Shown in pieces: positions 24,236-40,700 of a stretch of DNA of 54,861 nucleotides. The position numbers and the translations under genes are program-made. Position 1 is the stretch's first letter. Each line of letters opens with the position of its first letter. Source of the DNA: Thermodesulfobacteriota bacterium (lineage in GTDB: Bacteria > Desulfobacterota > Desulfobacteria > Desulfobacterales > SURF-7); contig JBMORA010000055.1 of assembly GCA_049320885.1 (NCBI GenBank), positions 1-54,861 on the forward strand, read 5' to 3'. A model generated the notes under the pieces. The model was not told the DNA's origin. It searched no databases and saw only the letters and a list, made by a program, of their open reading frames with translations.

Positions 24236-24359
24236 AACAAAGCATGGTATATTTTTGATGGAATTCATCCCGGGGGGCCGCAGCCGTCCGGGCGGATCGG
24301 ATACCATAAGAAACGATTGTCATCATTTATTCACCGTTTAATCCAAAGGAGGGATGGAT

Positions 24360-26489
24360 ATGGCCTTGAACATGGACGCATTGGGGAAAAAAATCGGTCC
24401 TGTTTCCAAGGACTACAGCTGGAAGGATGTGGTCCTGTACGCCCTAGGCGTGGGCGCCGGATTTTCCAATCTGGAATATTGCTACGAGAAAGACCTGAAG
24501 GTCATTCCGAGCTTTTCCATTGCATCGATTTTTGAGTTTATCGCCCAGTTCGGCATTGAGTCCGGCGTGAATCTGGCCGGTATTCTGCACGGCGAACAGG
24601 AACTGATTTTCCACAACCCGATTCCCACGGAAGGGACATTGACCACCGAGGGCAAGCTGACCCATTACTATGACAAGGGCAAGAAAAAAGGCGCCCTGGT
24701 GGTGGGCGAAAGTGAAACCCGGCATTCCAACGGGAAAAAGCTGTTCACCAGCATCCTCAGTATCTTTGCCCGCCTGGACGGCGGCTTTGACGGTCCGGAT
24801 GCCCCCAAGAAAGAGGTCATTTTCCCGGATCGGGCCCCGGATTTCGTGGTGGAGGAGGCGCCCGCCGGAAACCAGCCCCTGTTGTACCGATTGTCCGGCG
24901 ATCTCTTCGCCCTGCACGCGGATCCGGACTTCGCCAAGATGGCCGGGTTTGAAATGCCGATCATGCACGGCCTTTGCACCCATGGGTATGCCTGCCGGGC
25001 CCTGATCAACAACCTCATCCCCGGCGCACCGGAAAAAGCCCGGCGCATGTATTGCCGTTTTTCCAAAACCCTGTATCCGGGAACCCCGATTCAGATTCTG
25101 ATCTGGAAAACCGGCGCGGGCAAGGCGGTCTGGCGGGTGCTCAATTCCCGGAACGGGGAAACGGTCATCGACATGGGTGAATTTGAATACGGCGATATCC
25201 CCAAGGACGAGATTCGCTTTGATGGCCGCGTGGCCATCATCACCGGTGCCGGCGCCGGTCTGGGGCGGGTATACGCGCTGGAATTGGCCAAACGCGGCGC
25301 CATGGTGGTGGTGAACGACCTGGGCGGATCCCGGGATGGCTCGGGTGGAGGGTCCTCCGCCGCGGCCGACAAGGTCGTCAAGGAGATCCAGGAGGCGGGC
25401 GGCAAGGCTGTGGCCAACTATGACAATGTGGCCACGCCGGAAGGCGGCGAGAATATCGTCAAGACGGCCCTTTCCGCATTCGGCAAGGTGGATATCCTGA
25501 TCAACAACGCGGGCATCCTGCGGGACAAGAGCTTCACCAAGATGGAACCGGAAAACTGGCAGGCCGTCATGAAGGTCCACCTGGACGGGGCCTTCCATGT
25601 CACTCGGCCGGCGTTTGCGGCCATGAAGGACAACGGCTACGGACGCATCATCATGACCACTTCCGCGGCCGGTTTGTACGGCAATTTCGGGCAGACCAAT
25701 TATTCATCCGCCAAGATGGCCCTGGTGGGATTCATGAACACCCTGAAACTGGAAGGCCAGAAATATGACATCAAGGTCAACACCATCGCCCCGGTGGCCG
25801 CTTCACGGTTGACGGAGGATATCATGCCTCCCGATCTGTTCGAAAAGATGAAACCGGAATATGTGGCGCCCATGACCATCTATCTCTGCTCCGATAAATG
25901 CCAGGCAAGCGGCAATATTTACAACGCCGGCATGGGCTTTTACAACCGGGTGGCGGTGGTGACCGGTCCCGGCGCCGTGATCAAGGGCAGCGGTGAATTT
26001 CCGACGGTGGAGGATGTGCAGAAGAACCTGGGGAATATTGCCAGTCTCAAGGGCGGCAAGGAATACTTCCAGCTGAACGACCAGGTGGGCGACGTATTCA
26101 CGGCTCTCACCGGTCCGCCTTCGGGAGCCAAGGCCGGCGCGGAAACGGCGGCTGGAACGGCCGCCAGATTCGCCAGCGCGGCGGCTGTTTTCGAGGCCAT
26201 GCCCGGCGCTTTCCGGGCCGACAAGGCCGCCGGAAAGGATGTCGTCTTTCAATACATCATTTCCGGAAGCGGGGGCGGAGAATGGATTTGCGCCATCCAG
26301 AACGGAACCTGCGACATCCGGGCCGGGAAACATGAAAAACCGGCCTGCACCCTTAAAATGAAGGATGCCGATTTTCTGGACATGATGAACGGGAAGATGA
26401 ATCCCATGCAGGCGTTCACTTCCGGTAAGCTGGCCATTGAAGGCGATGTCATGAAGTCCCAACTGATCGAGAAGGTATTCAAGCTGTAG
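24360..26489 (+). CDS. MFE-2-like multifunctional enzyme: double-hotdog (R)-enoyl-CoA hydratase + SDR dehydrogenase + SCP2
   Basis: LYALGVG, LHGEQ, YRLSGDLFALHADP and PIMHGLCT (hydratase-2); TGAGAGLGR, NNAGILRD, GNFGQTNYSSAK (MFE-2 SDR); NPMQAFTSGKLAIEGD (SCP2); AAGGAGG RBS favours ATG 24360. Confidence 0.92.
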   Translation: MALNMDALGKKIGPVSKDYSWKDVVLYALGVGAGFSNLEYCYEKDLKVIPSFSIASIFEFIAQFGIESGVNLAGILHGEQELIFHNPIPTEGTLTTEGKLTHYYDKGKKKGALVVGESETRHSNGKKLFTSILSIFARLDGGFDGPDAPKKEVIFPDRAPDFVVEEAPAGNQPLLYRLSGDLFALHADPDFAKMAGFEMPIMHGLCTHGYACRALINNLIPGAPEKARRMYCRFSKTLYPGTPIQILIWKTGAGKAVWRVLNSRNGETVIDMGEFEYGDIPKDEIRFDGRVAIITGAGAGLGRVYALELAKRGAMVVVNDLGGSRDGSGGGSSAAADKVVKEIQEAGGKAVANYDNVATPEGGENIVKTALSAFGKVDILINNAGILRDKSFTKMEPENWQAVMKVHLDGAFHVTRPAFAAMKDNGYGRIIMTTSAAGLYGNFGQTNYSSAKMALVGFMNTLKLEGQKYDIKVNTIAPVAASRLTEDIMPPDLFEKMKPEYVAPMTIYLCSDKCQASGNIYNAGMGFYNRVAVVTGPGAVIKGSGEFPTVEDVQKNLGNIASLKGGKEYFQLNDQVGDVFTALTGPPSGAKAGAETAAGTAARFASAAAVFEAMPGAFRADKAAGKDVVFQYIISGSGGGEWICAIQNGTCDIRAGKHEKPACTLKMKDADFLDMMNGKMNPMQAFTSGKLAIEGDVMKSQLIEKVFKL

Positions 26490-26578
26490 GCCGTCGGCCG
26501 TTCGGCGCCGGTTCGTATCCGGCCGCCGGAGGATGACCGCTGATCATTAACGAAAATTGAAAAAAGAGGAGACCCGCA

Positions 26579-29311
26579 ATGATTGGTATCACTTCTTATG
26601 GGGCATATATTCCGCGTTTACGGTTGAACCGGATGTCCATTTTCCAGAGCATGGGCTGGTTCGCACCCGCCATTATGATGGTGGCCCAGGGGGAACGATC
26701 CATGTGCAATTGGGACGAAGATTCCATCACCATGGCGGTGGCCGCGGCCCGCGATTGCATCGCCGGGATGGACAAAATCGGCCTGGACGGCCTGTACATG
26801 GCCTCCACCACCATGCCTTTCGCCGACCGCCAGAATGCCGGTGTGGTGGCCACGGCCCTGAACCTGCGTGAAGACATCGTTACTTCCGATTTCACCGCTT
26901 CCCAGAAGGCCGGCAGTACGGCCCTGCTGACGGCCCTGGAGTCCGTGAAAAGCGGAGAGCGCAACCAGATTCTGGTGGCCGCCGCCGACCGCCGGGAAAC
27001 CAAGTCCGCCTATTTTTACGAAATGTGGTACGGCGACGGCGCCGCCGCCCTCACCGTGGGGAACCGGAACGTCATTGCCGAGTATCTGGGATCCTATTCG
27101 GTGTCCTGTGATTTCGTGGAACATTACCGGGGCAGCGACAACAAGTTCGACTATGTCTGGGAAGAACGCTGGGCAAGAGACGAGGGCTATTCCAAGATCA
27201 TCCCCGAGGCGGTCAACGGGTTGATGAAAAAGCTGAACATCACCATGGAGGCAGTGGACAAGCTGGTTTACCCCTGTTTTTTCAAGGCCGAGCACAAGAA
27301 TATCGCCAAAAAGCTCGGCGCCGGACCGGAGAAGGTCATGGACAACCTGCATGAAGTCTGCGGAGAAACCGGCACGGCCCACGCCCTGCTGATGTTTACG
27401 GCGGCCCTGCAGGAAGCCAAGCCCGGCGACCGGATACTCATGGCCGGATTCGGCCAGGGATGCAACGCCTTGTATTTCCGGGTGACCGACAATATCGCCC
27501 AACTGCCCGGCCGTTGCGGCCTCAAGGGCGCCCTCGCGAACAAGGAAATCGTCGACAATTACGCCAAATTCCTCAAGTTCCGGGATTTGCTGCCGACGGA
27601 AATGGGCATCCGCGCCGAGGCGCCCACCCAGACGGCCATGACCGTGCTGTGGCGCAAGCGCAAGATGATCCTTGGCCTGGTGGGCGGCAAGTGTCGGAAA
27701 TGCGGCACGGCCCAGTTTCCCAAGATGGATATCTGCGTTCGGCCTGACTGCGGGGCCATCCGCAGCCAGGATGAGTATGAGTTCGCCGATATCCCCGCCG
27801 CGGTGAAAACCTTCACCGGCGATCTCCTGGCGGTTTCGGTGGATCCGCCCCATATCTACGGCATGGTCCAGTTCAAGGGCGGCGGCCGCTTCATGGCTGA
27901 TTTCACCGACTGCAAGCTGGATGACGTCAAGGTGGGTTTGCCCATGCAGATGGTGTTCCGCAAACGGGTCACGGACAAGGAACGCGGATTCGTGAATTAC
28001 TTCTGGAAGGCGGCACCGGTACCGGGAGCCGCGGAAGCCATGAACCGGATCAATTTCGAGGGCCGCGTGGCGGTCATCACCGGCGCGGGCGGCGGATTGG
28101 GGCGCGTGTACGCCCTGGAACTGGCCAAACGCGGCGCCAAGGTGGTGGTCAACGATCTGGGCGGCTCCCGGGACGGCTCCGGAACCGGGTCGGCGACTCC
28201 GGCCCAGCAGGTAGTGTCGGAAATCGAAGCCCTGGGAGGCAAAGCCGTGGCCAATTATGACAACGTGGCCACGCCCGAAGGCGGTGAGAACATCATCAAG
28301 ACCGCCCTGGAAGCCTTCGGCCGGGTGGACATCCTCATCAACAACGCGGGGATTCTGCGGGACAAGAGTTTCCTGAAACAGGATCCCCAGAACTGGCAGG
28401 CGGTACTGGATGTCCATCTGAACGGGGCCTATCATGTCACCAAGCCGGCGTTCATCGCCATGAAGGAGCAGGGATACGGACGCATCATCATGACGACTTC
28501 GGCGGCCGGACTGTACGGCAATTTCGGCCAGACCAATTATTCCGCCGCCAAGATGGGACTCATCGGTCTGATGAACACCTTGAAACTGGAAGGGGCCAAA
28601 TACGACATCAAGGTCAACACCATCGCGCCGCTGGCTGCCTCGCGGCTGACCGAGGACATCATGCCGCCGGAGGTGTTCGCCAAAATGAAACCGGAATACG
28701 TGGCGCCCATGGTGGTCTATCTGTGCAGCGAAGCCTGTAAGGAGACCGGCCGGATCTATAACGCCGGCATGGGCTATTTCAACCGGGCCGCCATCATGAC
28801 CGGGCCGGCGGTTCAATTGGGCGATGCCGGACAGCTGCCCACCCCGGAAATGATTCACGAGAATTTCGATAAGATCAATCATTTCGAAGGCGCCCAGGAA
28901 ATGGCCGATCTGAATGCGGCCCTTTTCGCCATGATGACGCCGGCGGAGACCAAAAAAGAGGCGGCGCCGGCTGAAGCTGGAGGGGATGTGGCGCCGCAGC
29001 AGATTTTTGACCAGATGCCCGGGGCCTTTCAGAAATCCGCGGCGGCCGGAGTGGACGTTGTTTTCCAGTACACCATTTCCGGACCCAAGGGCGGCGACTG
29101 GGTGGTGACCGTCAAGGACGGGACCTGCAAGGTGGAAACCGGCAAGGCCGCCAAGGCGACCTGCACCATCAAGATGGCCGACAGTGATTTCGTGGCCATG
29201 GTGACCGGTAAATTGGATCCCATGAAGGCCTTCACCTCGGGCAAACTGGCCATCGACGGCGATGTTATGAAATCCCAGCTTATCCAAAAGCTGTTCAAAC
29301 TGAATCGATAG
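26579..29311 (+). CDS. Fusion: HMG-CoA-synthase-like domain + DUF35 (Zn ribbon/OB fold) + MFE-2-type SDR + SCP2
   Basis: GITSYGAYIPRLR, DEDSITMAV, GDGAAAL; CRKCG...CVRPDC plus OB fold; TGAGGGLGR...NYSAAK; DPMKAFTSGKLAIDGD. Confidence 0.9.
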   Translation: MIGITSYGAYIPRLRLNRMSIFQSMGWFAPAIMMVAQGERSMCNWDEDSITMAVAAARDCIAGMDKIGLDGLYMASTTMPFADRQNAGVVATALNLREDIVTSDFTASQKAGSTALLTALESVKSGERNQILVAAADRRETKSAYFYEMWYGDGAAALTVGNRNVIAEYLGSYSVSCDFVEHYRGSDNKFDYVWEERWARDEGYSKIIPEAVNGLMKKLNITMEAVDKLVYPCFFKAEHKNIAKKLGAGPEKVMDNLHEVCGETGTAHALLMFTAALQEAKPGDRILMAGFGQGCNALYFRVTDNIAQLPGRCGLKGALANKEIVDNYAKFLKFRDLLPTEMGIRAEAPTQTAMTVLWRKRKMILGLVGGKCRKCGTAQFPKMDICVRPDCGAIRSQDEYEFADIPAAVKTFTGDLLAVSVDPPHIYGMVQFKGGGRFMADFTDCKLDDVKVGLPMQMVFRKRVTDKERGFVNYFWKAAPVPGAAEAMNRINFEGRVAVITGAGGGLGRVYALELAKRGAKVVVNDLGGSRDGSGTGSATPAQQVVSEIEALGGKAVANYDNVATPEGGENIIKTALEAFGRVDILINNAGILRDKSFLKQDPQNWQAVLDVHLNGAYHVTKPAFIAMKEQGYGRIIMTTSAAGLYGNFGQTNYSAAKMGLIGLMNTLKLEGAKYDIKVNTIAPLAASRLTEDIMPPEVFAKMKPEYVAPMVVYLCSEACKETGRIYNAGMGYFNRAAIMTGPAVQLGDAGQLPTPEMIHENFDKINHFEGAQEMADLNAALFAMMTPAETKKEAAPAEAGGDVAPQQIFDQMPGAFQKSAAAGVDVVFQYTISGPKGGDWVVTVKDGTCKVETGKAAKATCTIKMADSDFVAMVTGKLDPMKAFTSGKLAIDGDVMKSQLIQKLFKLNR

Positions 29312-29323
29312 GAGGAACAAACC

Positions 29324-30532
29324 ATGGCAACAGGAATCAGAGACAAGGTTGCAATTATCGGTATGGGATGCACCAGGTTCGGTGAACGCTGGGATATGGG
29401 TGCCGAAGAACTGATGGTGGAGGCTTTTGAAGAATGCCTGCTGGATGCGGGAATCGAGAAGAAGGACATCCAGGCGGCCTGGTTCGGCACCTGCATGGAT
29501 GAAATCAACGTGGGCAAGACCGGCATGCCGCTGGCGGTGACCTTGAGGCTGCCCATGATCCCCGTTACCCGGGTCGAAAATTACTGCGCCACCGGCACTG
29601 AGGCCTTCCGCGGCGCCTGCTATGCGGTGGCCTCCGGCGCCTATGACATCTGTCTGGCCCAGGGCGTGGAAAAATTGAAGGATACGGGATACGGCGGGTT
29701 GCCCAATCCCGGTTCGGGAGTGGGCAGCCTCACCTGGCAGTGGTGGCCGAACCTGTCGGCCCCGGGCTCTTTCGCCCAACTGGCCAGCGCTTATGCCGCC
29801 AAATACAAGGTGGCGGACAAGGACTTGAAACGGGCCATCGCCCATGTATCGGTCAAGAGTCACGCCAACGGCACCTTGAATCCCAAGGCCCATCTGCGCA
29901 AGGCCGTGACCATCGAGCAGGTGCTGGCAGCCCCCATCATCGCCCATCCCTTGGGGTTGTTCGACTGCTGCGGGGTGAGCGACGGATCGGCCTGCGCCAT
30001 CGTCACCACCCCGGAAATCGCCAGGAAGCTCGGTAAAAAAGACTTCGTCACCGTCAAGGCCCTGCAGCTGGCACTCTCCAGCGGCGAAGAGATGGCTTAC
30101 AACGAATGGGACGGCGATCATTTCATGACCACGTCCAAATGCAGCCTCGCCGCCTACAAGGAAGCCGGCATAACGGACCCGCGAAAGGAAATCAGCATGA
30201 TGGAAGTTCATGACTGCTTCTCCATCACCGAGTTGGTGACCTATGAGGATTTGCACATTTCCGAACGCGGCCAGGCCTGGAAGGACGCCCTGAACGGCAT
30301 GTACGATCTGAACGGCCAGGTGCCCTGCCAGGTGGACGGTGGTTTGAAATGTTTCGGCCATCCCATCGGCGCCTCGGGACTGCGGATGATCTATGAAATG
30401 TATCTACAGTTGCACGGACGGGCCGACAAGCGTCAGCTCAAAGATCCCAAGTTCGGCCTGACCCACAACCTGGGAGGCTTTCCCTTCCAGAATATCTGCG
30501 CCATTTCCATCATCGGGAAATACGGCCGGTAG
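29324..30532 (+). CDS. SCP2/SCPx-type thiolase (acetyl-CoA acetyltransferase)
   Basis: VENYCATG (nucleophile Cys), EVHDCF, GHPIGASG, HNLGG; AGGAGG RBS. Confidence 0.92.
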   Translation: MATGIRDKVAIIGMGCTRFGERWDMGAEELMVEAFEECLLDAGIEKKDIQAAWFGTCMDEINVGKTGMPLAVTLRLPMIPVTRVENYCATGTEAFRGACYAVASGAYDICLAQGVEKLKDTGYGGLPNPGSGVGSLTWQWWPNLSAPGSFAQLASAYAAKYKVADKDLKRAIAHVSVKSHANGTLNPKAHLRKAVTIEQVLAAPIIAHPLGLFDCCGVSDGSACAIVTTPEIARKLGKKDFVTVKALQLALSSGEEMAYNEWDGDHFMTTSKCSLAAYKEAGITDPRKEISMMEVHDCFSITELVTYEDLHISERGQAWKDALNGMYDLNGQVPCQVDGGLKCFGHPIGASGLRMIYEMYLQLHGRADKRQLKDPKFGLTHNLGGFPFQNICAISIIGKYGR

Positions 30533-30605: not shown

Positions 30606-31748
30606 ATGCAGCTGTTGCCGTATACAGAGGATCATCACCGCTTCCGGGCGCGCCTGCGGAAATTCATGGCCGAGGAAGTCGTGCCCTGCGTGGAAGAATG
30701 GGAAAAAGAACACATCGTCCCCAGGGATATCTGGAAAAAAATGGGACGGGAGGGGTTTGTCTGTCCGGCCTTGTCCAGGGAGTATGGCGGAGGCGGCGGG
30801 GATTTCCTGCACTCCGCCATCGTGATCGAGGAAATCGCCCGCACCAATCACAGCGGTCTCGCCACGCCGTTGCACAGCGACATCGTGGTTCCCTATATTG
30901 AATCCTATGCTTCGGAGGAGCTGAAGCGGAAATATCTTCCCCTGTGCGCCGCGGGTGAGATGATCACCGCCGTGGCCATGACCGAACCCGATGCCGGCAG
31001 CGACCTCGCTTCCATGCAAACCACGGCGGAAGCCGACGGTGATGATATCGTCCTGAACGGCTCCAAGACTTTCATCACCAACGGGATCAATTGCGACCTG
31101 GTGATTGTGGCGGCAAAACAACCGGGGGCCGACAATCCCCACAAGGCCCTTTCCCTGTACCTGGTGGAAGACGGCACCCCCGGTTTCAACAAAGGCCGCC
31201 GGCTGGAAAAAATGGGCTTTCACAGTCAGGATACGGCCGAACTGTTTTTCACCGACTGCCGGATTCCCCAAACCAACCGTCTGGGGGCGGAGGGCGCCGG
31301 TTTTTACATGCTGATGGAAAAACTCCAGCAGGAGCGACTGGTATGCGCGGTCATGGGGGTTGCCGCTGCCGAACAGATCATGGAATGGACCATGCGCCAT
31401 TGCCGGGAAACCGTGGGTCCCAAAGGTCCGCTGACCCGCTCCCAGGCCGTTTCGTTCGCCCTGGTGGAAATGTGTACCGATGTGAAACTGGGAAGAACTT
31501 TCCTGGATAAGCTCATCGTCCAGCACATGGCCGGAGAGAATATCGTGATCGAGACCTCCATGGCCAAATACTGGACCACCGAACTGGCCAAACGCATTGC
31601 GGACCGGGCCCTTGACCTGATCGGCCAGGGGGGCACCCTGGAGACGACTCCGCCGGTCAGGGCCTTCCGGGATGCCCGGGTCATGTCGATTTTTGCCGGG
31701 ACCAATGAAATCATGAAGGGGATCGTGGCCAAGTTCATGGGAATGTGA
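30606..31748 (+). CDS. Acyl-CoA dehydrogenase, LCAD-type (putative alpha subunit 1)
   Basis: AMTEPDAGSD, KTFITNG, KMGFHSQDT, LQQERL, IFAGTNEIMK. Confidence 0.93.
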   Translation: MQLLPYTEDHHRFRARLRKFMAEEVVPCVEEWEKEHIVPRDIWKKMGREGFVCPALSREYGGGGGDFLHSAIVIEEIARTNHSGLATPLHSDIVVPYIESYASEELKRKYLPLCAAGEMITAVAMTEPDAGSDLASMQTTAEADGDDIVLNGSKTFITNGINCDLVIVAAKQPGADNPHKALSLYLVEDGTPGFNKGRRLEKMGFHSQDTAELFFTDCRIPQTNRLGAEGAGFYMLMEKLQQERLVCAVMGVAAAEQIMEWTMRHCRETVGPKGPLTRSQAVSFALVEMCTDVKLGRTFLDKLIVQHMAGENIVIETSMAKYWTTELAKRIADRALDLIGQGGTLETTPPVRAFRDARVMSIFAGTNEIMKGIVAKFMGM

Positions 31749-31755
31749 AAACAGC

Positions 31756-31925
31756 AATTACGAATTAGGAATTACGAATTAGGAATGGAGGTATGCTGTC
31801 AATTAAAATATTTGGAAAGCGAATCGGGGAAAGTCTGGCGTAAGGCACCAATGAGAAAGCCGGACGATCCTTCATTCGTAATTCCTAATTCCTAATTCCT
31901 AATTCCTAATTCGTAATTCGTAATT
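31756..31925. repeat. ~170-bp element with inverted heptamer arms: (AATTACG/AATTAGG)x4, 87-bp core, (CGTAATT/CCTAATT)x7
   Basis: Seen directly between two acyl-CoA dehydrogenase genes. Confidence 0.92.
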
Positions 31926-31941
31926 TAAAAAAGGGGGCTGC

Positions 31942-33090
31942 ATGTGTGAACTGACAAGATCGCAAAAAGAAATACAGAAGGCTGCGCAGGAATTCGCCAA
32001 GGGTGAGTTCGACAAGGAAGTGACCACGGAACTGGAAAAAGAGCATTCCTATCCCGAACGGATCTGGAAGAAGGCCGCCGACCTGGGATTCGTCGGTATC
32101 CAGTTCGCGGAAAAATACGGTGGCGGCGGTCTGGGTCTCATGGACGCCTGCCTGGTGGCTGAGACCCTTTGCCGCAGGGATTCCACCATGGGCAGCGCCA
32201 TATCCCTCGCGACGTTCGGTGCGGAATGCCTGCACCGGTTCGGGGATGAAAAACTGAAAGCGGCGTTTCTGCCGAAGGTGATCGAAGGAGAGGTGTTGAC
32301 CGGCATCGCCTTGTTTGAAACCGAACGCGGCGACGATTTCAGCGTCTTGGAAACCACGGCGAAGAATGCGGGATCGGAATGGGTGATCACCGGCAAAAAG
32401 CGCTATGTGATCAACGGCGGGAAAGCCGGATTTTATCTGGTGCTCTGCCGCACCGAAGACCGGTTTGATGAGAACGGCGGGACCTGCCTGCTGCTGGTGG
32501 AGGCGGACCGGGAGGGACTCGGTGTGACGTCCCTGGGGGATAAACTCGCGCTCAATTCCGTGGCCACCGCCGATCTGTCCTTCTCCCAGGTGCGGGTGCC
32601 GCAGACGAATGCGGTGGGTAAGGAGGGCCGGGGCATCTCCCAGGTCAAGGCGTTTCTGGATGAGGTGAAAATCCTGGCGGCTGCCAGGGCCGTGGGGATT
32701 GCCGCGGGCGCGCTGGACCGTGCATTGGTCTATGTCAAACAGCGGGAGCAGTTTGACCGGAAACTGGCCCAGTTCCAGATCACCCGGCATAAAATCGCCG
32801 ATATGGCCACCAAGGTGGAACTGGCCCGGCTCATCACCTACCGCGCGGCTGCGGATTTCGACAAGGGCAAATCCGATCCGGTGTTGAGCGCCATGGCCAA
32901 AATGGCGGCGGGCCGGATGGCGGTGGAAGTGGCGGACGAGGCCATTCAGCTGTTCGGCGGATACGGATACATGACCGAACAGGAGGTTGAACGGTATTAC
33001 CGGGACGCCAAGACCATCGAACTGTGTCTGGGAACCCGGGAGAGCCAGAAGGATCTCATTGCCGACACGGTCATCGGCAAATTGAAATAG
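31942..33090 (+). CDS. Acyl-CoA dehydrogenase-family protein with degenerate active site (putative beta subunit)
   Basis: ACAD fold with QREQF and QLFGGYGY, but LFETERGDD, KRYVING and ELCLGT where TEPxxGSD, KxFITNG and IYEGT are expected. Confidence 0.9.
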   Translation: MCELTRSQKEIQKAAQEFAKGEFDKEVTTELEKEHSYPERIWKKAADLGFVGIQFAEKYGGGGLGLMDACLVAETLCRRDSTMGSAISLATFGAECLHRFGDEKLKAAFLPKVIEGEVLTGIALFETERGDDFSVLETTAKNAGSEWVITGKKRYVINGGKAGFYLVLCRTEDRFDENGGTCLLLVEADREGLGVTSLGDKLALNSVATADLSFSQVRVPQTNAVGKEGRGISQVKAFLDEVKILAAARAVGIAAGALDRALVYVKQREQFDRKLAQFQITRHKIADMATKVELARLITYRAAADFDKGKSDPVLSAMAKMAAGRMAVEVADEAIQLFGGYGYMTEQEVERYYRDAKTIELCLGTRESQKDLIADTVIGKLK

Positions 33091-33116
33091 CAGGGCAGGC
33101 GTTGGGAGGACAGCAT

Positions 33117-34259
33117 ATGGAAATCATTACGTACACGCAGGAACAGAAGGAATTCCGGCAGCGGCTGCGCGTTTTCCTGGAAAACGAGGTGGCGCCCCGG
33201 GTGGATCAGTGGGAAGCGGACCACCTGATGCCCAAGTCGGTCTGGAAAAGAATGGGTGCCGGCGGGTTTTTATGTCCGTCGGTTTCCAGGGAATACGGCG
33301 GGATCGGCGGGGACTACCGGTATGCGGTGATCGTCGCCGAGGAAATGGCCCGCACCCGCTTCACGGGACTGGCGGCCTCGCTGCACAGCGATGTGGTGGT
33401 GCCGTATCTGGATTCCTTCGGGACGCCCGAACAGAAAAAAAAATACCTGCCTGGTTGCGTCTCCGGCGATGTCGTCACGGCGGTGGCCATGACCGAACCG
33501 GATGCCGGCTCTGATGTGGCCGGTATGAAAACCACGGCCGTGGAATCCGGGGATGAAGTGATCATCAACGGCTCCAAAACCTTCATTTCCAACGGAATCA
33601 ACTGCGACCTGCTGATTCTGGCGGCCCGGGACCCGGAAATCGGCAGCAAGCACCAGGCGGTATCGCTCTATCTGGTGGAGGACGGGACGCCGGGATTCGA
33701 CAAGGGCCGCCGACTGGAAAAAATGGGTTGGCACAGCCAGGACACCGCCGAGATGTTTTTCAACGATTGCCGGATTCCAAAGTCGAACCGGCTGGGGGAT
33801 AAAGGCGGCGGCTTCATCATGTTGATGCAGAAGCTGCAGCAGGAACGTCTGACCTGTGTGCTGGGCGCCGTTCCGGCGGCGGAGTTGATTCTGGAATGGA
33901 CCATCGATTGCTGCCGGAAATTTTTCCGGAACGGCAAACCCCTGATCAAGTCCCAGGCGATTCAGTTCGCCCTGGTGGAGATGATGACGGAAGTCAAACT
34001 GGGACGCACGTTCATGGAAAAACTGGTGATGGATCATATCGAAGGCCAGACCATCGTCATTGAAACGTCCATGGCCAAGTACTGGACCACGGAGATGGTC
34101 AACCGCATCGCCGACCGCTCCCTGGAGATCGTCGGTGAATTCGGCACCCTTGAATCCTGTCCCATTGTCCGGGCCAAACGCGATGTGCGGGTTATGTCGA
34201 TTTTCGCCGGAACCAATGAGATCATGAAAGGTATCGCGGCCAAGTTCATGGGAATGTGA
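33117..34259 (+). CDS. Acyl-CoA dehydrogenase, LCAD-type (putative alpha subunit 2), close paralogue of 30606-31748
   Basis: AMTEPDAGSD, KTFISNG, LQQERL, IFAGTNEIMK; GGAGG RBS before ATG 33117; same length (380 aa) as the paralogue. Confidence 0.93.
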   Translation: MEIITYTQEQKEFRQRLRVFLENEVAPRVDQWEADHLMPKSVWKRMGAGGFLCPSVSREYGGIGGDYRYAVIVAEEMARTRFTGLAASLHSDVVVPYLDSFGTPEQKKKYLPGCVSGDVVTAVAMTEPDAGSDVAGMKTTAVESGDEVIINGSKTFISNGINCDLLILAARDPEIGSKHQAVSLYLVEDGTPGFDKGRRLEKMGWHSQDTAEMFFNDCRIPKSNRLGDKGGGFIMLMQKLQQERLTCVLGAVPAAELILEWTIDCCRKFFRNGKPLIKSQAIQFALVEMMTEVKLGRTFMEKLVMDHIEGQTIVIETSMAKYWTTEMVNRIADRSLEIVGEFGTLESCPIVRAKRDVRVMSIFAGTNEIMKGIAAKFMGM

Positions 34260-34266
34260 TGGGGGC

Positions 34267-34313
34267 AATTACGAATTAGGAATTACGAACTACGAATTTT
34301 AGGAATTGGGAAT
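34267..34313. repeat. Heptamer array (AATTACG/AATTAGG family)
   Basis: AATTACG AATTAGG AATTACG AACTACG AATTTTAGG AATTGGG AAT, 7 nt after a stop codon. Confidence 0.88.
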
Positions 34314-34329
34314 GAAAGGAGTCGGTGCG

Positions 34330-36024
34330 ATGGGACTTGAGGACAGGAAGTGGGTCAGACACTATGATCCGGGAGTACTGCCGGAGATTCCGATTCCGGA
34401 CATTACTTTCACGGATATGCTGCTGGAAGGCATCAAGGCAAAGCCCCAGCGGCCGGCGCTGCATTTTCTCGGGCGGACGATCACTTTCAAGGAACTGGAT
34501 ACACTCTCGGGAAGATTCGTTTCCTTTTTGAAAAATCATGGCTATGGGCCGGGCAGCGTGGTGGGCATCAACCTGCCCAATATTCCGGAATATCCCATTG
34601 CCCTGACCGGGGCCCTGCGGGCCGGCTGCACCGTCACCGGCATATCGCCGCTGCTGACCCCCAAGGAGCTGGCCTACCAGCTGACGGATGCCGGCGTGGG
34701 CGTTCTCGTGATCCTGGACAATCTGTTCGCGGAGCGTCTGGTGAAAATCGCCGCCGGCGTTGCCTGCCTGAAGCACGTCGTGGTGGTCAATGTGGGGGAT
34801 TCCCTTCCCTGGATCAAGAGACTGCTCGGCACGGCTCTGAAAAAAATACCCCGGGGCGAGATCACGCCTCTTTCGGCCAAGGAAGTGTTGCGGTTCAAGG
34901 AGATTCTTTCCGCATACCCGCCGGGGGAGGACAAGCCCCGGCTATCCCCGGAGGACACCTGCCTGATTCAATATACCGGCGGCACCACGGGAATGCCCAA
35001 GGGCGCGGAGCTTTCCCATCGGAATCTGGTGGCCAATACCCTGCATGTGCGCGAATGGGTGGGCTGGGAAATGGGCCAGGATGTGCTCTGTTCGGCCTTC
35101 CCGTTTTTTCATTTGGCGGGTCTGGCTTTCGGCATGGTGGCCATGAGTACGGCCAATACCCAGTGCCTGATCCCCGATCCCCGCAATATCCGGCATTTCT
35201 GCAATGAAATCAAAAACCGCAAACCCACGGTGATGGCCAATGTGCCGACCCTGTATCAGATGCTGCTGAATGAGCCGGTCTTCAAGACCCTGGATTTTTC
35301 CATGCTGAAAATCTGTGTGTCCGGCGCCGCGCCGTTTTCCATGGAAAGTATCCAGACCTTCGAAAAAGTCGTGGGCAAGGGCAAGGTGATGGAAGTCTAT
35401 GGCATGACCGAGGCCAGCCCCCTGCTCACCATGAACCCCTATGCAGGCAAGAAAAAAATCGGCTCGGTGGGGGTTCCGGTGATGAATACGGATATCAAGA
35501 TCGTGGACCTGGAAACCAGAAGCCGGGAAACGGCTGTCGGTGAGCCCGGCGAACTCATCGCCCGGGGCCCCCAGGTGATGAAGGGGTATCACAACAAACC
35601 GGAAGAAACGGCCAATACCCTGCGGGAGTTGGCGGGGGCGACCTGGCTGTTCACCGGCGACGTGGCCCGCATGGACGAGGATGGGTTTATCTACGTTGTG
35701 GACCGGGCCAAGGATATGCTCATCGTCGGAGGATACAAGGTTTTTTCGCGGGAGGTGGAGGAAACCCTGTATCAGCATCCGGATATCGAATTTTGCGCCA
35801 TTGTCGGCTTGCCGGACGCGAACCGGCCCGGCAGCGAGATCGTCAAGGTCGTCATTCAGCTGAAAAGCGCTTCCCGGGAGAAAGACCGGCGGCAGGTGGA
35901 GGCGGATATCGTCGCCTATTGCAGGGAAAACATGGCCCCGTATAAAGTGCCGAAAATCGTGGAGGTCGTGGACCAGATGCCGTTGACGGCGGTGGGGAAG
36001 GTGGACAAGAAAAAACTGAGATAA
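34330..36024 (+). CDS. Long-chain fatty acid-CoA ligase (AMP-forming, FadD-like)
   Basis: QYTGGTTGMPKG, VYGMTEASP, FTGDVA, DRAKDMLIVGG, PLTAVGKVDK; AAGGAG RBS. Confidence 0.93.
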   Translation: MGLEDRKWVRHYDPGVLPEIPIPDITFTDMLLEGIKAKPQRPALHFLGRTITFKELDTLSGRFVSFLKNHGYGPGSVVGINLPNIPEYPIALTGALRAGCTVTGISPLLTPKELAYQLTDAGVGVLVILDNLFAERLVKIAAGVACLKHVVVVNVGDSLPWIKRLLGTALKKIPRGEITPLSAKEVLRFKEILSAYPPGEDKPRLSPEDTCLIQYTGGTTGMPKGAELSHRNLVANTLHVREWVGWEMGQDVLCSAFPFFHLAGLAFGMVAMSTANTQCLIPDPRNIRHFCNEIKNRKPTVMANVPTLYQMLLNEPVFKTLDFSMLKICVSGAAPFSMESIQTFEKVVGKGKVMEVYGMTEASPLLTMNPYAGKKKIGSVGVPVMNTDIKIVDLETRSRETAVGEPGELIARGPQVMKGYHNKPEETANTLRELAGATWLFTGDVARMDEDGFIYVVDRAKDMLIVGGYKVFSREVEETLYQHPDIEFCAIVGLPDANRPGSEIVKVVIQLKSASREKDRRQVEADIVAYCRENMAPYKVPKIVEVVDQMPLTAVGKVDKKKLR

Positions 36025-36028
36025 CGGC

Positions 36029-36059
36029 AATTAGGAATTACGAATTAGGAATTACGAAT
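36029..36059. repeat. Heptamer array (AATTAGG AATTACG)x2
   Basis: Seen directly, 4 nt after a stop codon. Confidence 0.88.
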
Positions 36060-36118
36060 GGCGGATGAGGGGTGATTTTTATTTCTCACTCACCAGCCAG
36101 GGGTTTCAGGAAATTGAT

Positions 36119-36463
36119 ATGCAGGATAGGCCAACGGTCATTGAATACAGTCATCAGCCGCTGAATCAGGAAATCGTCGCCATCGGCGGACGGTATATCC
36201 TGATCAAGGAGGTGCGCCTGAAAACAGCGGAACAGGAAGTGCTGTATCAGGTGGGGTGCGCCATGGTGGACAGCTCCTGCTGCGGACCAGCCGGGTGCGG
36301 CTATGCTGTGGTCCAGGGCTTTGTCCGTGACTGGCAGTACCGCCGCGATGAGCGGGGATTGCCGGTGACCCGGGTGGAGCGCATTCAGGAGCCGGCCGCG
36401 CAGGCGGAGATCGGGACTCTGATCCGCAAAAAAGAGCTGGTGACCCAGGTGAATTTTTTATAG
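36119..36463 (+). CDS. Hypothetical protein with DSSCCGPAGC motif
   Basis: Co-oriented in the cluster, 8 nt before the next gene; Cys cluster; start 36119 or 36065. Confidence 0.75.
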   Translation: MQDRPTVIEYSHQPLNQEIVAIGGRYILIKEVRLKTAEQEVLYQVGCAMVDSSCCGPAGCGYAVVQGFVRDWQYRRDERGLPVTRVERIQEPAAQAEIGTLIRKKELVTQVNFL

Positions 36464-36471
36464 GGGATTAC

Positions 36472-37635
36472 ATGAAAGAACCGAAAATGACAAAAAAGGG
36501 GGCTCTGGACGGTATTCTGGTGGTGGATCTGTCCCGCCTGCTGCCCGGACCGTATTGTTCGATGATTCTTGCCGATCATGGGGCGCGGGTCATCGCCATC
36601 GAGGATAAACGCTACCAGGCCGAAGGCCTTTTTCTGTCCACGGTCAACCGCAACAAGGAGCATATGTCCCTGGATCTGAAGACTCCCGAGGGCAAGGCCG
36701 TCTTTTTCCGTCTGGCGGAGAAGGCGGATGTGGTGCTGGAAGGCTTCCGGCCGGGGGTGGTGGCGCGTCTGGGAGTGGATTACGAGGCGGTCCGCCGGAT
36801 CAATCCCGGGATAATCTACTGTTCCATCACCGGATACGGCCAGACCGGACCCTACCGGGACCGGGCGGGACATGACGCCAATTACATGAGCGTGGCCGGG
36901 GTTCTGGATCTGATCGGCGAAGCGGATCGTCCGCCTTCCATACCGGGCGTCCAACTGGCGGATATCGCCGGAGGGGGCATGAACGCCGCCATCGGAGTGC
37001 TGCTGGCCCTCCACGCCCGGGAGAAGACCGGCCAGGGTCAGTATATCGACATTTCCATGACCGACGGCATGGCCGGCCTGCTGGCCGTGCCGCTGTTCTT
37101 CCGGCAGCTGACCGGACAAATTCCCGGGCGCGCCGACACCATGCTGTCCCATCGCTATGCCTGTTACAACACCTACGAAACCGCCGACGGCCGCCACATT
37201 TCCATCGGAGCGGTGGAATTGCGTTTCTGGAAGGTATTGTGCGATCACCTGGGGGTCCCCGAGTACATCCCCCTCCAGTATGACGACGCACGGCGGAAAG
37301 AGATCATCGGATTCATGCGCAAGACCTTCCGGGGCAAAACCATGGCGGAATGGGAAAGGGAGTTCGGCGATCTGGATATCTGTTTCGGTCCGGTAAAGCG
37401 TCTGGATGAGGCCATGCAGGATCCCCAGCTGCGGAGCCGGGACATGTTTCCGGAGTTGGAGTCGGCGCCGGGACGGAAAACCGACGCCATCGGCATCCCC
37501 GTCAAGCTGAGCGGGACGCCCGGAACGCTGCGGACCCCGCCGGTGCGGTTCGGCCAGAGCACGGCGAGCGTTCTGACCGAGTTCGGCTACAGCGGGGAAG
37601 AGATCGAAGACCTGACCCGCAAGGGAGTCATTTAA
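36472..37635 (+). CDS. CaiB/BaiF family III CoA-transferase, AMACR-like
   Basis: DLSRLLPGPY, NRNK..SLDLK, EGFRPGV..RLG, SITGYGQTGP, GHDANY, LADIAGGG. Confidence 0.9.
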   Translation: MKEPKMTKKGALDGILVVDLSRLLPGPYCSMILADHGARVIAIEDKRYQAEGLFLSTVNRNKEHMSLDLKTPEGKAVFFRLAEKADVVLEGFRPGVVARLGVDYEAVRRINPGIIYCSITGYGQTGPYRDRAGHDANYMSVAGVLDLIGEADRPPSIPGVQLADIAGGGMNAAIGVLLALHAREKTGQGQYIDISMTDGMAGLLAVPLFFRQLTGQIPGRADTMLSHRYACYNTYETADGRHISIGAVELRFWKVLCDHLGVPEYIPLQYDDARRKEIIGFMRKTFRGKTMAEWEREFGDLDICFGPVKRLDEAMQDPQLRSRDMFPELESAPGRKTDAIGIPVKLSGTPGTLRTPPVRFGQSTASVLTEFGYSGEEIEDLTRKGVI

Positions 37636-37651
37636 ATTGACAACAACCTTT

Positions 37652-37682
37652 ATTCGTAATTCGTAATTCCAAATTCCTAATT
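37652..37682. repeat. Heptamer array in reverse orientation (CGTAATT/CCTAATT)x4
   Basis: Seen directly, 6 nt before the next start codon. Confidence 0.85.
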
Positions 37683-37688
37683 GCCGTT

Positions 37689-38729
37689 ATGAAAACTCGT
37701 GTCACGGAATTATTCGGCATCCGCTATCCGATCCTGTTGTCCGGCATGACCGGCATCAGCAATCCCCGTCTGACGGCCGCCGTGTCCAATGCCGGCGGAC
37801 TGGGCATTCTGGCCACGGCCGACATCGTCCCGGACCGGTTGCGCCGGGCCGTTCAGGAGGTCCGGGGGCTGACCGACAAACCCTTCGGCGCCAACGTCCC
37901 CTTCCTTCTTCCCGGATCTGCGGAAAAGGCCGCCGTGCTGGTGGCAGAAAAAGTGCCGGTGATCAATTACACCCTCGGTAAAGGCCAGGGCCTGATCGAT
38001 GCCGTTCATGAATACGGCGGCCGGGTGATCGCCACTGTGACCCTGAAAAAACATGCCCTTTCAGCGGAAAAGAGCGGCGCCGACGCGGTGATCGTCACCG
38101 GGCACGAGGCCGCGGCCCATGGGGGCGAGGCCACCTCCCTGGTGCTGATACCCCATATCGCCGATGCCCTGGCCATCCCGGTGGTCGCCGCCGGCGGCTT
38201 TTCGGACGGCAGGGGGCTCGCGGCGGCGCTGGCGCTGGGTGCGGAGGGCATCGCCATGGGCACCCGCTTCATGAATACGCTGGAGAGTCCCGCGCATGCC
38301 AACATGAAGCAGATGAGCAATACAAAAGGCGTGCAGGACACCGTCTATTCGGATCGCATCGACGGTCTCCCCTGCCGCGCCCTGAAAACCAATGGGACCC
38401 GGCGCTTGATGAACCAGCGACTGTATATGATTTCAGCGCTGGTCAATTCCCGGAATGCGGCCCGGGCATTCGGATTTCCCTGGTTCAAAATGTTCCTCGG
38501 CATTTTGCTTTCCGGCTACCGGCGGTCCAGGCAGCTGGCCCGCATGGCCAATGCCTTCCAGCCCATCCAACGGGCCATCGAGACCGGGGACCTGGAGAAA
38601 GGCGTTTTCCTCATGGGGCAGGTGACGGGGAATATCCGACATACGCCCGCGGTGGCGGAACTGATGGAGACCATTATCCGGGAGGCCCTGACGGCGAGAA
38701 TGATGGTTGCGGAGAAACTGGTTTTGTGA
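37689..38729 (+). CDS. Nitronate monooxygenase / FabK-like flavin oxidoreductase
   Basis: AVSNAGGLG, GHEAAAHG, PVVAAGGF.DGRGLAAALALGA..MGTRF. Confidence 0.88.
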   Translation: MKTRVTELFGIRYPILLSGMTGISNPRLTAAVSNAGGLGILATADIVPDRLRRAVQEVRGLTDKPFGANVPFLLPGSAEKAAVLVAEKVPVINYTLGKGQGLIDAVHEYGGRVIATVTLKKHALSAEKSGADAVIVTGHEAAAHGGEATSLVLIPHIADALAIPVVAAGGFSDGRGLAAALALGAEGIAMGTRFMNTLESPAHANMKQMSNTKGVQDTVYSDRIDGLPCRALKTNGTRRLMNQRLYMISALVNSRNAARAFGFPWFKMFLGILLSGYRRSRQLARMANAFQPIQRAIETGDLEKGVFLMGQVTGNIRHTPAVAELMETIIREALTARMMVAEKLVL

Positions 38730-38828
38730 AATACAACCATGCAGATTGAAGGCGGAAAGGAAAAGAGAGCTTCTCTTTTACAATAACAACCTGTTTACAA
38801 TTGTTCAAAACAAGAAAAGGAGAACACC

Positions 38829-40682
38829 ATGGCACAACAAATCGCTGATCGACGGGATGTGGACTTCGTTATCTACGAGCAGCTGGAAGGGGAAAACCTG
38901 ACCAAATTCGCCCGGTATAAGGACATGAACCGTAAAATGTTCGACATGATCATCACCGAGGCGCGCAATTTCGCCATCAAGGAGATCCTGCCGGTCAACG
39001 AGGAAGGGGACCGGGTGGGGCTTATTTTTGAAAACAACCAGGTCACGGTGCCGGAGTGCTTCCACCGTCCCTATGAACTCCTGCGGGAAGGGGAGTGGAT
39101 CGCCATGATGGAGGACCCGGAAGTCGGCGGTCAGGGACTGCCCAACCTGGTGGCCCAGGCGGCACTGGAATATATCATCGGCGCGGACTTTTCCTTTGCC
39201 GCCTTCGGATTCGCCACCCACGGGGCGGCCAAGATGGTCGAGGTTTTCGGTACGGAAAAACAGAAGAATCTTTTTCTGCGAAAGATGTACAGCGGCCAAT
39301 GGGGCGGCACCATGGTCCTGACCGAGCCGGAGGCCGGTTCCGACGTCGGCAATCTGACCACTTCGGCCGTCAGGAATCCGGACGGCACCTACTCCATCTC
39401 CGGGAACAAGATCTTCATCACCTGCGGTGAGCATAACCTGACGGAAAACATCATCCATCCGGTGCTGGCCAGGATCGAAGGCGCGCCCAAGGGGACCAAG
39501 GGCATTTCCCTGTTCCTGGTGCCCAAAATTTGGGTCAATGACGACGGCAGCCTGGGCGAACCCAACGACGTGGTGTGCACCGGCATCGAGGAAAAACTCG
39601 GACTGCACGCCAGCCCCACCTGCCAGCTGACCTTCGGCGGCAAGGGCAAATGCCGCGGAACATTGCTGGGAGAGGAGAACAAGGGCATGCATGTCATGTT
39701 CCACATGATGAACGAGGCCCGCCTGGGCGTCGGCGCTCTGGGCCTCTTCAATGCCTCCTGCGCGTACCTGTACGCCGTCAACTATGCGCGGGAGCGTGTC
39801 CAGGGCCGTGATCTGGCCGATATGCTCAACAAGGACGCCCTGTCGGTGAATATCATCCGTCATCCCGATGTGCGGCGGATGCTGATGTGGATGAAATCCC
39901 ACGTGGAAGGCATGCGCAGCCTGGTGTATTACACCGGGTACCTGTTCGACAAGGTCGCCTGCACCACGGATGAAGCCGAGCGCACAAGCTGCAACGATCT
40001 GATCGAGCTCTTGACCCCCATCATCAAATCCTATTGCACGGACCGCGGTTTCGAAGCCACGGTCATGGCCATGCAGGTGTACGGCGGCTATGGCTACACC
40101 GCCGATTATCCGGTGGAACGGCTGATGCGGGATTCCAAGATCAATTCCATTTACGAGGGCACCAACGGCATCCAGGCCATGGATCTGCTGGGCCGGAAAA
40201 TGGGCATGAAAAAAGGCGCGGTGTTCATGCAGTTCATGGGCGAAGTGCAGAAGATCATTGCCAAGGCCAGGGAAATGGAAGGGCTGGCCGGACTGGCGGG
40301 TGACCTGGAGGCAACTCTCAACCGGCTGGGCGAGATCGCCATGCACATGGGCAAAACCGCCATGAGCGCCGACTTCAAAATCGCCTTTTCCTTTGCTTCA
40401 CCGTTCCTGGACGTCATGGGCGACGTGATCATGGCCTGGATGCTGCTGTGGCGGGCCACCGTGGCCAAACCGGCCCTGGACAAAATCGTGGGCAACGCTC
40501 AGGGAGACGAGCGGCTGGACAAAATCCAGAAAAACAAGAACGCCGCCTTTTATGAAGGCCAGGTCAAATCGGCGGAATATTTCATCCAGGCCATACTGCC
40601 CCTGACCCATGGCAGGATGAAGGCCATCAAGGCCGGCAGCCGCGCCGTCATCGATATACCCGAAGTCGCTTTCGGAGGGTGA
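38829..40682 (+). CDS. Long-form acyl-CoA dehydrogenase with C-terminal extension
   Basis: MVLTEPEAGSD, KIFITCG, EEKLGLHASPT, MNEARL, RVQG, QVYGGYGY, SIYEGTNGIQAMDL all intact. Confidence 0.93.
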   Translation: MAQQIADRRDVDFVIYEQLEGENLTKFARYKDMNRKMFDMIITEARNFAIKEILPVNEEGDRVGLIFENNQVTVPECFHRPYELLREGEWIAMMEDPEVGGQGLPNLVAQAALEYIIGADFSFAAFGFATHGAAKMVEVFGTEKQKNLFLRKMYSGQWGGTMVLTEPEAGSDVGNLTTSAVRNPDGTYSISGNKIFITCGEHNLTENIIHPVLARIEGAPKGTKGISLFLVPKIWVNDDGSLGEPNDVVCTGIEEKLGLHASPTCQLTFGGKGKCRGTLLGEENKGMHVMFHMMNEARLGVGALGLFNASCAYLYAVNYARERVQGRDLADMLNKDALSVNIIRHPDVRRMLMWMKSHVEGMRSLVYYTGYLFDKVACTTDEAERTSCNDLIELLTPIIKSYCTDRGFEATVMAMQVYGGYGYTADYPVERLMRDSKINSIYEGTNGIQAMDLLGRKMGMKKGAVFMQFMGEVQKIIAKAREMEGLAGLAGDLEATLNRLGEIAMHMGKTAMSADFKIAFSFASPFLDVMGDVIMAWMLLWRATVAKPALDKIVGNAQGDERLDKIQKNKNAAFYEGQVKSAEYFIQAILPLTHGRMKAIKAGSRAVIDIPEVAFGG

Positions 40683-40700
40683 TCCCGAAAAACGGAATCC

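Follow-up and report, generated by a model that had tools for sequence, protein, structure and literature searches.

Complementary loss of flavin-site motifs in three clustered acyl-CoA dehydrogenases suggests a non-catalytic subunit serving two catalytic ones in a Desulfobacterales bacterium

A 54,861-nt stretch of a Thermodesulfobacteriota genome (assembly GCA_049320885.1, contig JBMORA010000055.1, positions 1 to 54,861, forward strand; hereafter the window) carries three clustered acyl-CoA dehydrogenase (ACAD) genes, here called A1, B and A2, whose products have lost complementary sets of the motifs that build the flavin adenine dinucleotide (FAD) site. We propose that the three probably form a half-site heteromeric ACAD system, in which B would be a dead paralogue completing the FAD pocket of two catalytic subunits of the LCAD (long-chain acyl-CoA dehydrogenase) type. 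An ACAD subunit normally lends two motifs, R-x-x-F-G and Q-x-x-G-G-x-G-Y, to the FAD of its partner; we call these the lent motifs, and genes with the pattern of A1/A2 or of B alpha-type and beta-type, respectively. Genomes, contigs and loci of the survey are referred to by G, C and L numbers where they need to be told apart. The three genes are:

30606..31748, + strand: A1, predicted LCAD-type catalytic (alpha-type) ACAD, 380 amino acids (aa); Pfam N, M and C domains, matches to PDB 2pg0 and human LCAD.
31942..33090, + strand: B, predicted non-catalytic (beta-type) ACAD, 382 aa; Pfam ACAD domains, matches to PDB 5ol2_C and 4l1f.
33117..34259, + strand: A2, second predicted LCAD-type catalytic (alpha-type) ACAD, 380 aa; Pfam domains and PDB matches.

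Each product is a full three-domain ACAD (PF02771/PF02770/PF00441 above the gathering score; E 1e-15 to 1e-44), A2 is 63% identical to A1, and all three genes lie on the same strand, with gaps of 193 bp between A1 and B and 26 bp between B and A2. A longer A2 frame that starts at GTG 33024 and overlaps B was rejected in favour of a start at ATG 33117, preceded by a GGGAGG ribosome-binding site.

Both A1 and A2 aligned without gaps and over their full length to 2pg0, a homomeric LCAD-type enzyme (E 1.7e-126 and 3.6e-118), and human LCAD also aligned without gaps to both (E 8.6e-89 for A1). Their own flavin-site motifs, TEPDAGSD and KTFI[TS]NG, were retained, and the Glu of their 'QQERL' aligned with the E of 'PQERL' in human LCAD 8w0t and with the Q of 'PQQRL' in its inactive mutant 8w0z; this human residue is the catalytic Glu291 according to PMC11153573. 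At the position that is catalytic in medium-chain acyl-CoA dehydrogenase (MCAD) both proteins have Ala, their 'IFAGT' aligning with LCAD 'IYGGT'. With a Glu at the LCAD Glu291 position and none at the MCAD Glu376 position, A1 and A2 are thus of the LCAD/isovaleryl-CoA dehydrogenase (IVD) type. The lent motifs were gone from both: 2pg0 'kqRtaFGk' aligned with 'crETVGPKG' in A1 and 'crKFFRNGK' in A2, where T269 and F, respectively, occupy the canonical R position, and 2pg0 'QlhGGyGY' aligned with 'DliGQgGT' and 'EivGEfGT'. In A1 these elements map to:

30981..31004, + strand: own flavin-site motif TEPDAGSD (residues 126-133); mean entropy 0.19-0.34 bits in 60 alpha-type relatives.
31332..31334, + strand: codon of Glu243, predicted catalytic base at the LCAD/IVD (helix G) position, aligned to 8w0t/8w0z.
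31407..31427, + strand: ETVGPKG in place of the lent R-x-x-F-G, from the ungapped 2pg0 alignment; mean entropy 2.0-2.3 bits.
31614..31637, + strand: DLIGQGGT in place of the lent Q-x-x-G-G-x-G-Y; mean entropy 1.7-1.8 bits.

B showed the reverse pattern. In the PDB it matched 5ol2_C and 4l1f best (E 1e-64 to 1e-65), both of the butyryl-CoA dehydrogenase (Bcd)/short-chain acyl-CoA dehydrogenase (SCAD) type. Alignment to pig MCAD 3mdd and to 5ol2_C placed 'FETerGDD' of B at 'TEPgaGSD' and 'KrYVING' at 'KmWITNG'; B has Leu at the position of the YEGT Glu of 3mdd, 5ol2_C and 4l1f, and Val at the LCAD-position residue. In the 3mdd/5ol2_C alignment both lent motifs were kept, 'RktFG' corresponding to 'REqFD' and 'QvFGGnGF' to 'QlFGGyGY'. 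B bears the marks of a non-catalytic partner, having retained only the residues that it lends to its neighbour's FAD. The elements in question are:

32314..32337, + strand: FETERGDD, degenerate own flavin-site motif of B (canonical TEPxxGSD); entropy 2.14 bits in 26 beta-type proteins vs 0.14 in 30 canonical ones.
32743..32754, + strand: REQF (Arg268-Phe271), retained lent motif 1 of B, from the alignment.
32947..32970, + strand: QLFGGYGY (Gln336-Tyr343), retained lent motif 2 of B, from the alignment.
33028..33030, + strand: codon of Leu363 of B at the MCAD catalytic-Glu position, aligned to the YEGT Glu; canonical relatives have IYEGT.

An earlier sequence-only reading of this stretch had described the three genes, a complementary loss of motifs among them, and an origin of the alpha and beta genes from different ACAD subfamilies. 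All of this held: genes and domains are as described and every quoted motif is present (Pfam and sequence check), ungapped alignments to 2pg0, LCAD, MCAD and 5ol2_C confirmed that the Arg and the Gly-Gly are gone from the alphas and the Glu from B, and the nearest structures are 2pg0/LCAD for A1 and A2 and the Bcd/SCAD-type 5ol2_C and 4l1f for B.

Conservation of the split was evaluated in 121 genomes of the order, with thresholds of E 1e-120 or better for A1 matches and 1e-75 or better for B-like genes. There were 62 A1 matches in 44 of the 121 genomes and a B-like gene in 89. Once flanks had been fetched, 60 of the 62 proved alpha-type, distributed over 43 genomes, and the other two (both in G007) were canonical LCAD-like proteins of 50-51% identity with the motifs kept. 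The 29 paired alpha-type proteins had entropies of at most 0.19 bits at own-site and catalytic motifs and of 2.34 and 1.77 bits at the lent ones (protein mean 1.06), and the 31 lone ones, which have no beta-type gene nearby, gave at most 0.34 bits, 1.99 and 1.73 bits, and a mean of 1.09; QQERL was invariant in the former and near-invariant in the latter. Entropies in the 26 beta-type proteins were 2.14, 1.27 and 2.24 bits at own-site and catalytic motifs and 0.68 and 0.33 bits at lent motifs (mean 1.48). The corresponding values in 30 canonical sisters were 0.14, 0.27 and 0.16 bits, then 0.11 and 0.04 bits (mean 0.56).

Two further collections were compared. The best 120 A1 homologues in a protein collection (64-100% identity) all kept the own-site and catalytic motifs, and inspection of these 120 by eye found no R-x-x-F-G or Q-x-x-G-G-x-G-Y at the aligned places, where the stretches are hypervariable. 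Among the best 80 B-relative loci in a genome-contig collection, in which the closest named relatives are metagenome-assembled genomes of Desulfobacterales, 77 were canonical (54-60% identity, no alpha-type neighbour) and carried TEPDHGSD, K[TI]FITNG, REQFGKK, QLLGGYGY and YEGT. The other three (L002, L004 and L005) had beta-type decay (SETDFGLD, KTHV[IL]NG, LCFGN), and all three stood in A1-B-A2 synteny. Because the motif split is reciprocal and conserved across relatives, the complementary loss is, judging by these comparisons, more than chance.

The history of the genes was reconstructed from quick maximum-likelihood searches with support values of the approximate likelihood-ratio type (SH-aLRT) only, and the branching described here is to be read with that restriction. 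In a tree of 66 B-like proteins, 25 beta-type rows formed one clade (SH-aLRT 91), beside which L090 was unresolved. This clade was sister to a clade of canonical stand-alone ACADs (support 89; both together 100), and its end branches were several times longer than the others. A single long-branched beta clade next to a canonical one agrees with a single ancient duplication, after which the active site was lost. Nearly all beta-clade rows (26 of 27) adjoined an alpha-type ACAD: 24 stood beside an LCAD-like alpha-type gene, and L139 and L140 (pairs at L139:2971-5372 and L140:1783-4140) beside an MCAD-type ACAD that is 32-33% identical to A1, keeps the YEGT Glu and has lost both lent motifs. The remaining row without an ACAD neighbour, L134, lies on a 5.6-kb contig of a 75%-complete genome. 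The L139 beta/MCAD-type pair also adjoins an enoyl-CoA hydratase gene.

Loss of the catalytic Glu and of the own flavin-site motifs, together with the long branches of the beta clade, might be expected of a decaying duplicate without function. This explanation is already contradicted and is scarcely credible: the open reading frame (ORF) is intact at about 382 aa in 27 of 27 beta-clade rows from several families of the order, nine lent-motif residues (R268, Q270, F271, Q336, L337, G339, G340, Y341 and G342) do not vary across 27 aligned rows, beta-type and canonical, and the ratio of nonsynonymous to synonymous substitution (dN/dS) against a genus-mate was 0.108 for B, compared with 0.069 for A1, 0.083 for A2 and 0.024 for the thiolase of the operon. 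Purifying selection acts on B.

A structural model of A1, B and FAD gave ipSAE values of 0.91, 0.90 and 0.91 vs 0.00 for the best control, a pass that the similarity to known structures of ACAD dimers and tetramers would lead one to expect and that does not separate alpha-beta from alpha-alpha pairing. Of 157 solved complexes 116 attained this mark, as did 2 of 215 mismatched pairs; the partner had a pLDDT of 93, and at least 96% of contacts were the same from run to run. Residues 269-272 and 335-346 of B were modelled against 129-133, 156 and 358-368 of A1, which is the canonical ACAD dimer interface. Within it, TEPDAGSD of A1 touches B 270-271, REQF of B touches A1 132-133, and QLFGGYGY of B touches A1 156 and 359-368.

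These data are consistent with the following mechanism. B would be a catalytically dead ACAD paralogue that no longer binds a flavin of its own. Where B dimerises with an alpha in the usual ACAD geometry, its Arg268/Phe271 and Gln336/Gly339-Gly340 would cross the interface and complete the ADP-ribose half of the FAD pocket in the catalytic LCAD-type subunit, and B would be kept for that contribution. A1 and A2 would be catalytic subunits that diverged long ago and presumably prefer different substrates, forming A1-B and A2-B dimers that assemble into tetramers, with B as partner to each; a third alpha-type protein of this genome, encoded on contig C34, may use B in trans. Physical pairing, stoichiometry, FAD occupancy and substrate are what we infer here, and the sharing of one B by two alpha subunits is a plausible part of that inference.

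The provisional trees and a model that does not discriminate limit this proposal, and the main evidence against it comes from alpha-type genes without a beta. The sequence-only reading had named a lack of co-occurrence of the homologues as an outcome that would refute it, and had asked whether alpha-type genes always neighbour a beta. Co-occurrence was borne out from the beta side, by the 26 of 27 rows given above, and failed from the alpha side, since a beta-type gene lay within 3 kb on the same strand for only 28 of the 60 alpha-type genes. One more (G092:C34) had a B-like gene, a candidate beta, one gene away, and for 31 there was no beta-type gene within the fetched flanks, 6 of which had less than 1 kb on one side. 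One of these lone genes belongs to the genome under study: G000:C34:3510-4694 (- strand; L001:3510-4694), its third alpha-type gene, is 62% identical to A1, has lost the same lent motifs, and belongs to another operon, which holds two genes for enoyl-CoA hydratases beside a divergent MerR gene, no beta gene being nearby. The genes most closely related to it in other genomes are paired with a beta (support 100). Five lone loci (L147-L151) were fetched with about 8-10 kb on each side. In L147, L149, L150 and L151 the operon was otherwise complete (hydratase/SDR, scaffold, thiolase and alpha) and had no ACAD besides the alpha-type gene; the alpha gene of the fifth locus, L148, had no recognised neighbour but a short hydratase/SDR-like fragment. 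In their lent regions, lone and paired alpha-type genes showed no sequence difference, both being equally degenerate, and lone and paired genes were interspersed on a 63-row tree with 11-12 changes of state.

A beta hidden elsewhere in the genome was sought and mostly not found. In the 19 genomes with lone alphas only, the B-like genes at other places were all canonical except in G086, G085 and G094. G086 has a beta-type gene on another small contig, and G085 (L132:2998-4152) and G094 (L137:1-762, partial) have an otherwise canonical sister of B whose catalytic Glu has become Gln and Ala, respectively. This sister stands in a conserved setting beside an ABC1 kinase gene in both genomes, and in G085 beside deacetylase and CBS genes as well. 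Among all ACADs of about 380-440 aa in the lone-alpha genomes G085 and G054 there was no spare, unpaired beta of the B clade; their classification gave only PimCD-like pairs with an alpha of their own, for which the best two-subunit NCBIfam families were pimC_large/pimD_small, below the cut-offs. A B-like gene, beta or canonical sister, was present in all 43 genomes with an alpha-type gene vs 48 of the 78 others, a difference confounded by relatedness and genome content. Since 31 of the 60 alpha-type genes lack a beta neighbour, the word 'obligate', which had been applied to the heteromer, is not supported for the alphas as far as gene content can tell. Lone alpha genes without a spare beta suggest that alpha-type subunits may be active without B, and the family would either manage with no dedicated beta or take the trans half-site of some other ACAD.

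The first of these options would make the alpha-type LCAD-like proteins self-sufficient homotetramers that hold FAD without the trans Arg and Gln, with B an optional accessory such as a stabiliser, regulator or substrate-binding partner. The many lone genes, often the sole ACAD of a complete operon, the likeness of lent regions in lone and paired copies, and the lack of a spare beta in G085 and G054 all speak for it. In the second lent region, alpha-type proteins also retain a Gly and a residue that is mostly acidic, and two residues before the lost Arg they have a K/R; these could provide substitute contacts. It is hard to reconcile, however, with lent motifs that stay invariant in B while the rest of B evolves fast, unless those motifs are used on a partner's FAD, and the lent regions of lone alphas vary above the protein average, unlike an alternative binding site. 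We regard the homotetramer as a serious but doubtful explanation.

On the second option, no member of the LCAD-like alpha-type family could complete its own FAD pocket, and all would invariably obtain the trans half from a subunit of the Bcd-like kind: a dedicated beta where there is one, serving two or three alphas, and otherwise a canonical ACAD, 'canon57', as donor. This canon57 ACAD, the sister of beta, occurs in every lone-alpha genome examined and has lost its catalytic Glu in two. We consider such a universal borrowing unlikely; if true, it would mean that members of different ACAD subfamilies form heteromers promiscuously, and beta would be a subfunctionalised copy of a housekeeping enzyme that moonlights.

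Gene order also bears on whether B is partner to both neighbours. Two alpha genes share an operon with one beta in relatives too, as A-B-A in G111, G011, L004 and L005 and as B-A-A in G016, and these operons combine different alpha sub-lineages. In a quick alpha tree of 63 rows, A1 and A2 fell into different old sub-lineages, each with beta-adjacent members elsewhere. Beta-then-alpha order was found in 22 distinct pairs vs 5 alpha-then-beta, 14 of the 22 being at most 20 bp apart or overlapping. This preference, and a B-A2 gap of 26 bp as against an A1-B gap of 193 bp holding a repeat insertion, would agree with B pairing with one flanking alpha only, more likely A2 directly downstream, while the other alpha works alone. 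Yet only 14 bp separate A1 from B in the genus-mate G111, alphas of the A1 lineage are beta-adjacent elsewhere (L085 and the G016 and G011 operons), and the A1-B model scored far above its controls, so that we hold an exclusive partnership to be very unlikely.

The wide A1-B gap itself arises from an inserted array of short repeats:

31756..31925, no strand: inverted arrays of the heptamers AATTACG/AATTAGG, between A1 and B.

The array forms an inverted repeat with 31-nt arms that are 94-97% complementary, and arrays of at least three AATTACG/AATTAGG units occur 31 times on 12 contigs of the genome. As the genus-mate site is so short, the array looks like a small mobile or repetitive extragenic palindromic (REP)-like element. 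Tandem heptamers of the same kind also lie in the operon gaps at 34267-34287 and 36029-36056.

The division of labour proposed for A1 and B has known counterparts. In steroid alpha2beta2 ACADs, alpha binds the isoalloxazine, carries the Glu at the LCAD/IVD position and binds the substrate, beta binds the ADP-ribose, and each tetramer holds two FAD (PMC11153573 and PMC8399759). The enzymes ChsE4-ChsE5 (FadE26-FadE27) and ChsE1-ChsE2 (FadE28-FadE29) of Mycobacterium tuberculosis (PDB 4x28) and 6wy8 of Thermomonospora curvata are encoded by adjacent genes and divide the work in the same way. The A1-B-A2 genes resemble them in being adjacent and co-oriented, with alphas that keep the predicted flavin-ring site and Glu and a beta that keeps the predicted ADP-ribose residues. 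The lineage differs, however. A1 scored 114.6 bits to 4x28_A vs 425 bits to 2pg0, and 4x28 ranked 59th among the best 60 PDB matches of A1 and was absent from the best 60 of B. Unlike in the ChsE enzymes, the alphas are LCAD-like, and the beta is Bcd/SCAD-like, its sister being a canonical ACAD that stands alone and comes from the same bacterial order; each beta goes with two or three alpha genes, many alpha homologues have no beta, and steroid-ring genes are missing. NCBIfam scores also fell far below the cut-offs (B: IpdE2 87 bits against 450, pimD_small 160 against 652.7; A1: pimC_large 89 against 623.85). Both subunits stand nearer to common homomeric ACADs than to ChsE, IpdE or PimCD. Low family scores, a distant 4x28 and a beta whose sister is a canonical ACAD of the same order suggest a ChsE-like way of working in another lineage, and the half-site architecture seems to have arisen separately from that of ChsE.

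Other ACADs share parts of the pattern. The homotetrameric LCAD-type enzymes 2pg0 (Geobacillus kaustophilus) and human LCAD 8w0t have the helix-G Glu and an Ala/Gly at the MCAD Glu position in common with A1 and A2, but keep R-x-x-F-G and Q-x-x-G-G-x-G-Y, both of which the alpha-type family has lost. FadE31-FadE32/FadE31-FadE33 and IpdE1-IpdE2 of M. tuberculosis, which are of an unrelated lineage and belong to the breakdown of the steroid C/D rings, may offer a precedent for a subunit with more than one partner. FadE31 is reported, by Wipperman et al. in 2013, to pair with both FadE32 and FadE33. A heteromeric FadE31-FadE32 is mentioned in PMC6678751. PimCD of Rhodopseudomonas palustris is a suspected heterotetramer and a two-gene ACAD of anaerobic metabolism (bioRxiv 10.1101/2025.02.21.639450); PimCD (TIGR03204/TIGR03203) is a two-gene ACAD like A1/B, but A1 matches only the N-terminal 254 residues of pimC_large and the lineage is different. 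PimCD-like large/small ACAD pairs at L201 (G085:C1:5562300-5565400) and L211 (G054:C42:6000-9100) carry the same complementary motif split, and a further ACAD pair at L208 has one member degenerate in both motif sets. ThnO/ThnT of the naphthalene degrader N47 were considered as a precedent and rejected, being ordinary ACADs; ThnO forms a homotetramer that holds 0.8 FAD per subunit (PMC11659651). The sequence-only reading had also placed these heteromers in an anaerobe. This is not new in itself: homologues of the heteromeric steroid ACADs are reported from denitrifiers (PMC8399759), and the same genomes also hold PimCD-like pairs. A literature search, with supplements outside its scope, found no LCAD-like/Bcd-like heteromeric ACAD in Desulfobacterales.

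The three genes stand within an operon of about 24354 to 42095:

24354..30532, + strand: upstream genes, in order a hydratase-2/SDR/SCP2 fusion, an HMGS-like/DUF35/SDR/SCP2 fusion and an SCPx-type thiolase (Pfam, NCBIfam).
Within 34306..42095, + strand: first part of the downstream genes, an acyl-CoA ligase, a small ORF without assignment and a family-III CoA-transferase fold protein (racemase-like) (Pfam, NCBIfam).
Within 34306..42095, + strand: second part of the downstream genes, an NMO/FabK-like flavoprotein, a 617-aa FadE-type ACAD, a phosphoesterase and a TetR protein.

The same upstream genes stand 5' of alpha-type genes in relatives, and the operon is a peroxisome-like beta-oxidation enzyme set. 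The best PDB matches of the CoA-transferase-fold protein (36472-37635) were alpha-methylacyl-CoA racemases (E 2e-63), and from this racemase-like gene the substrate is probably a 2-methyl-branched or bulky acyl-CoA. The 910-aa fusion at 26579-29311 (+ strand), which adjoins the SCPx-type thiolase, combines an HMG-CoA-synthase-like domain, a DUF35 zinc-ribbon/OB module, SDR and SCP2. Between the acyl-CoA ligase and the racemase-like gene, a 132-aa ORF (36065-36463, + strand) had no Pfam or NCBIfam match and is kept at the same place in related operons, with 75% identity in L002 and L153 and 41% in L005 and L164. Elsewhere in the window, a 996-aa protein (12722-15712, - strand) joins an MMPL/RND-type membrane domain to HisKA and HATPase histidine kinase domains, an unusual transporter-like sensor kinase whose membrane domain also matches the sterol-sensing domain.

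To our knowledge, heteromeric ACADs with a dead subunit are textbook matter only for steroid catabolism in actinobacteria and proteobacteria, PimCD being suspected. The same solution appears to have evolved again here, from two ordinary ACAD subfamilies and in strictly anaerobic Desulfobacterales-type bacteria, within an operon type that is widespread but uncharacterised, peroxisome-like and probably devoted to branched or bulky lipids. The beta-type genes would then be a natural experiment on the retention of a pseudoenzyme for the sake of a few residues that act in trans, and they call for caution in annotation, as beta-type 'acyl-CoA dehydrogenases' would not be dehydrogenases. The beta-less alpha genes pose the complementary question of whether FAD is held without the trans Arg and Gln contacts or whether these contacts are borrowed from another ACAD.

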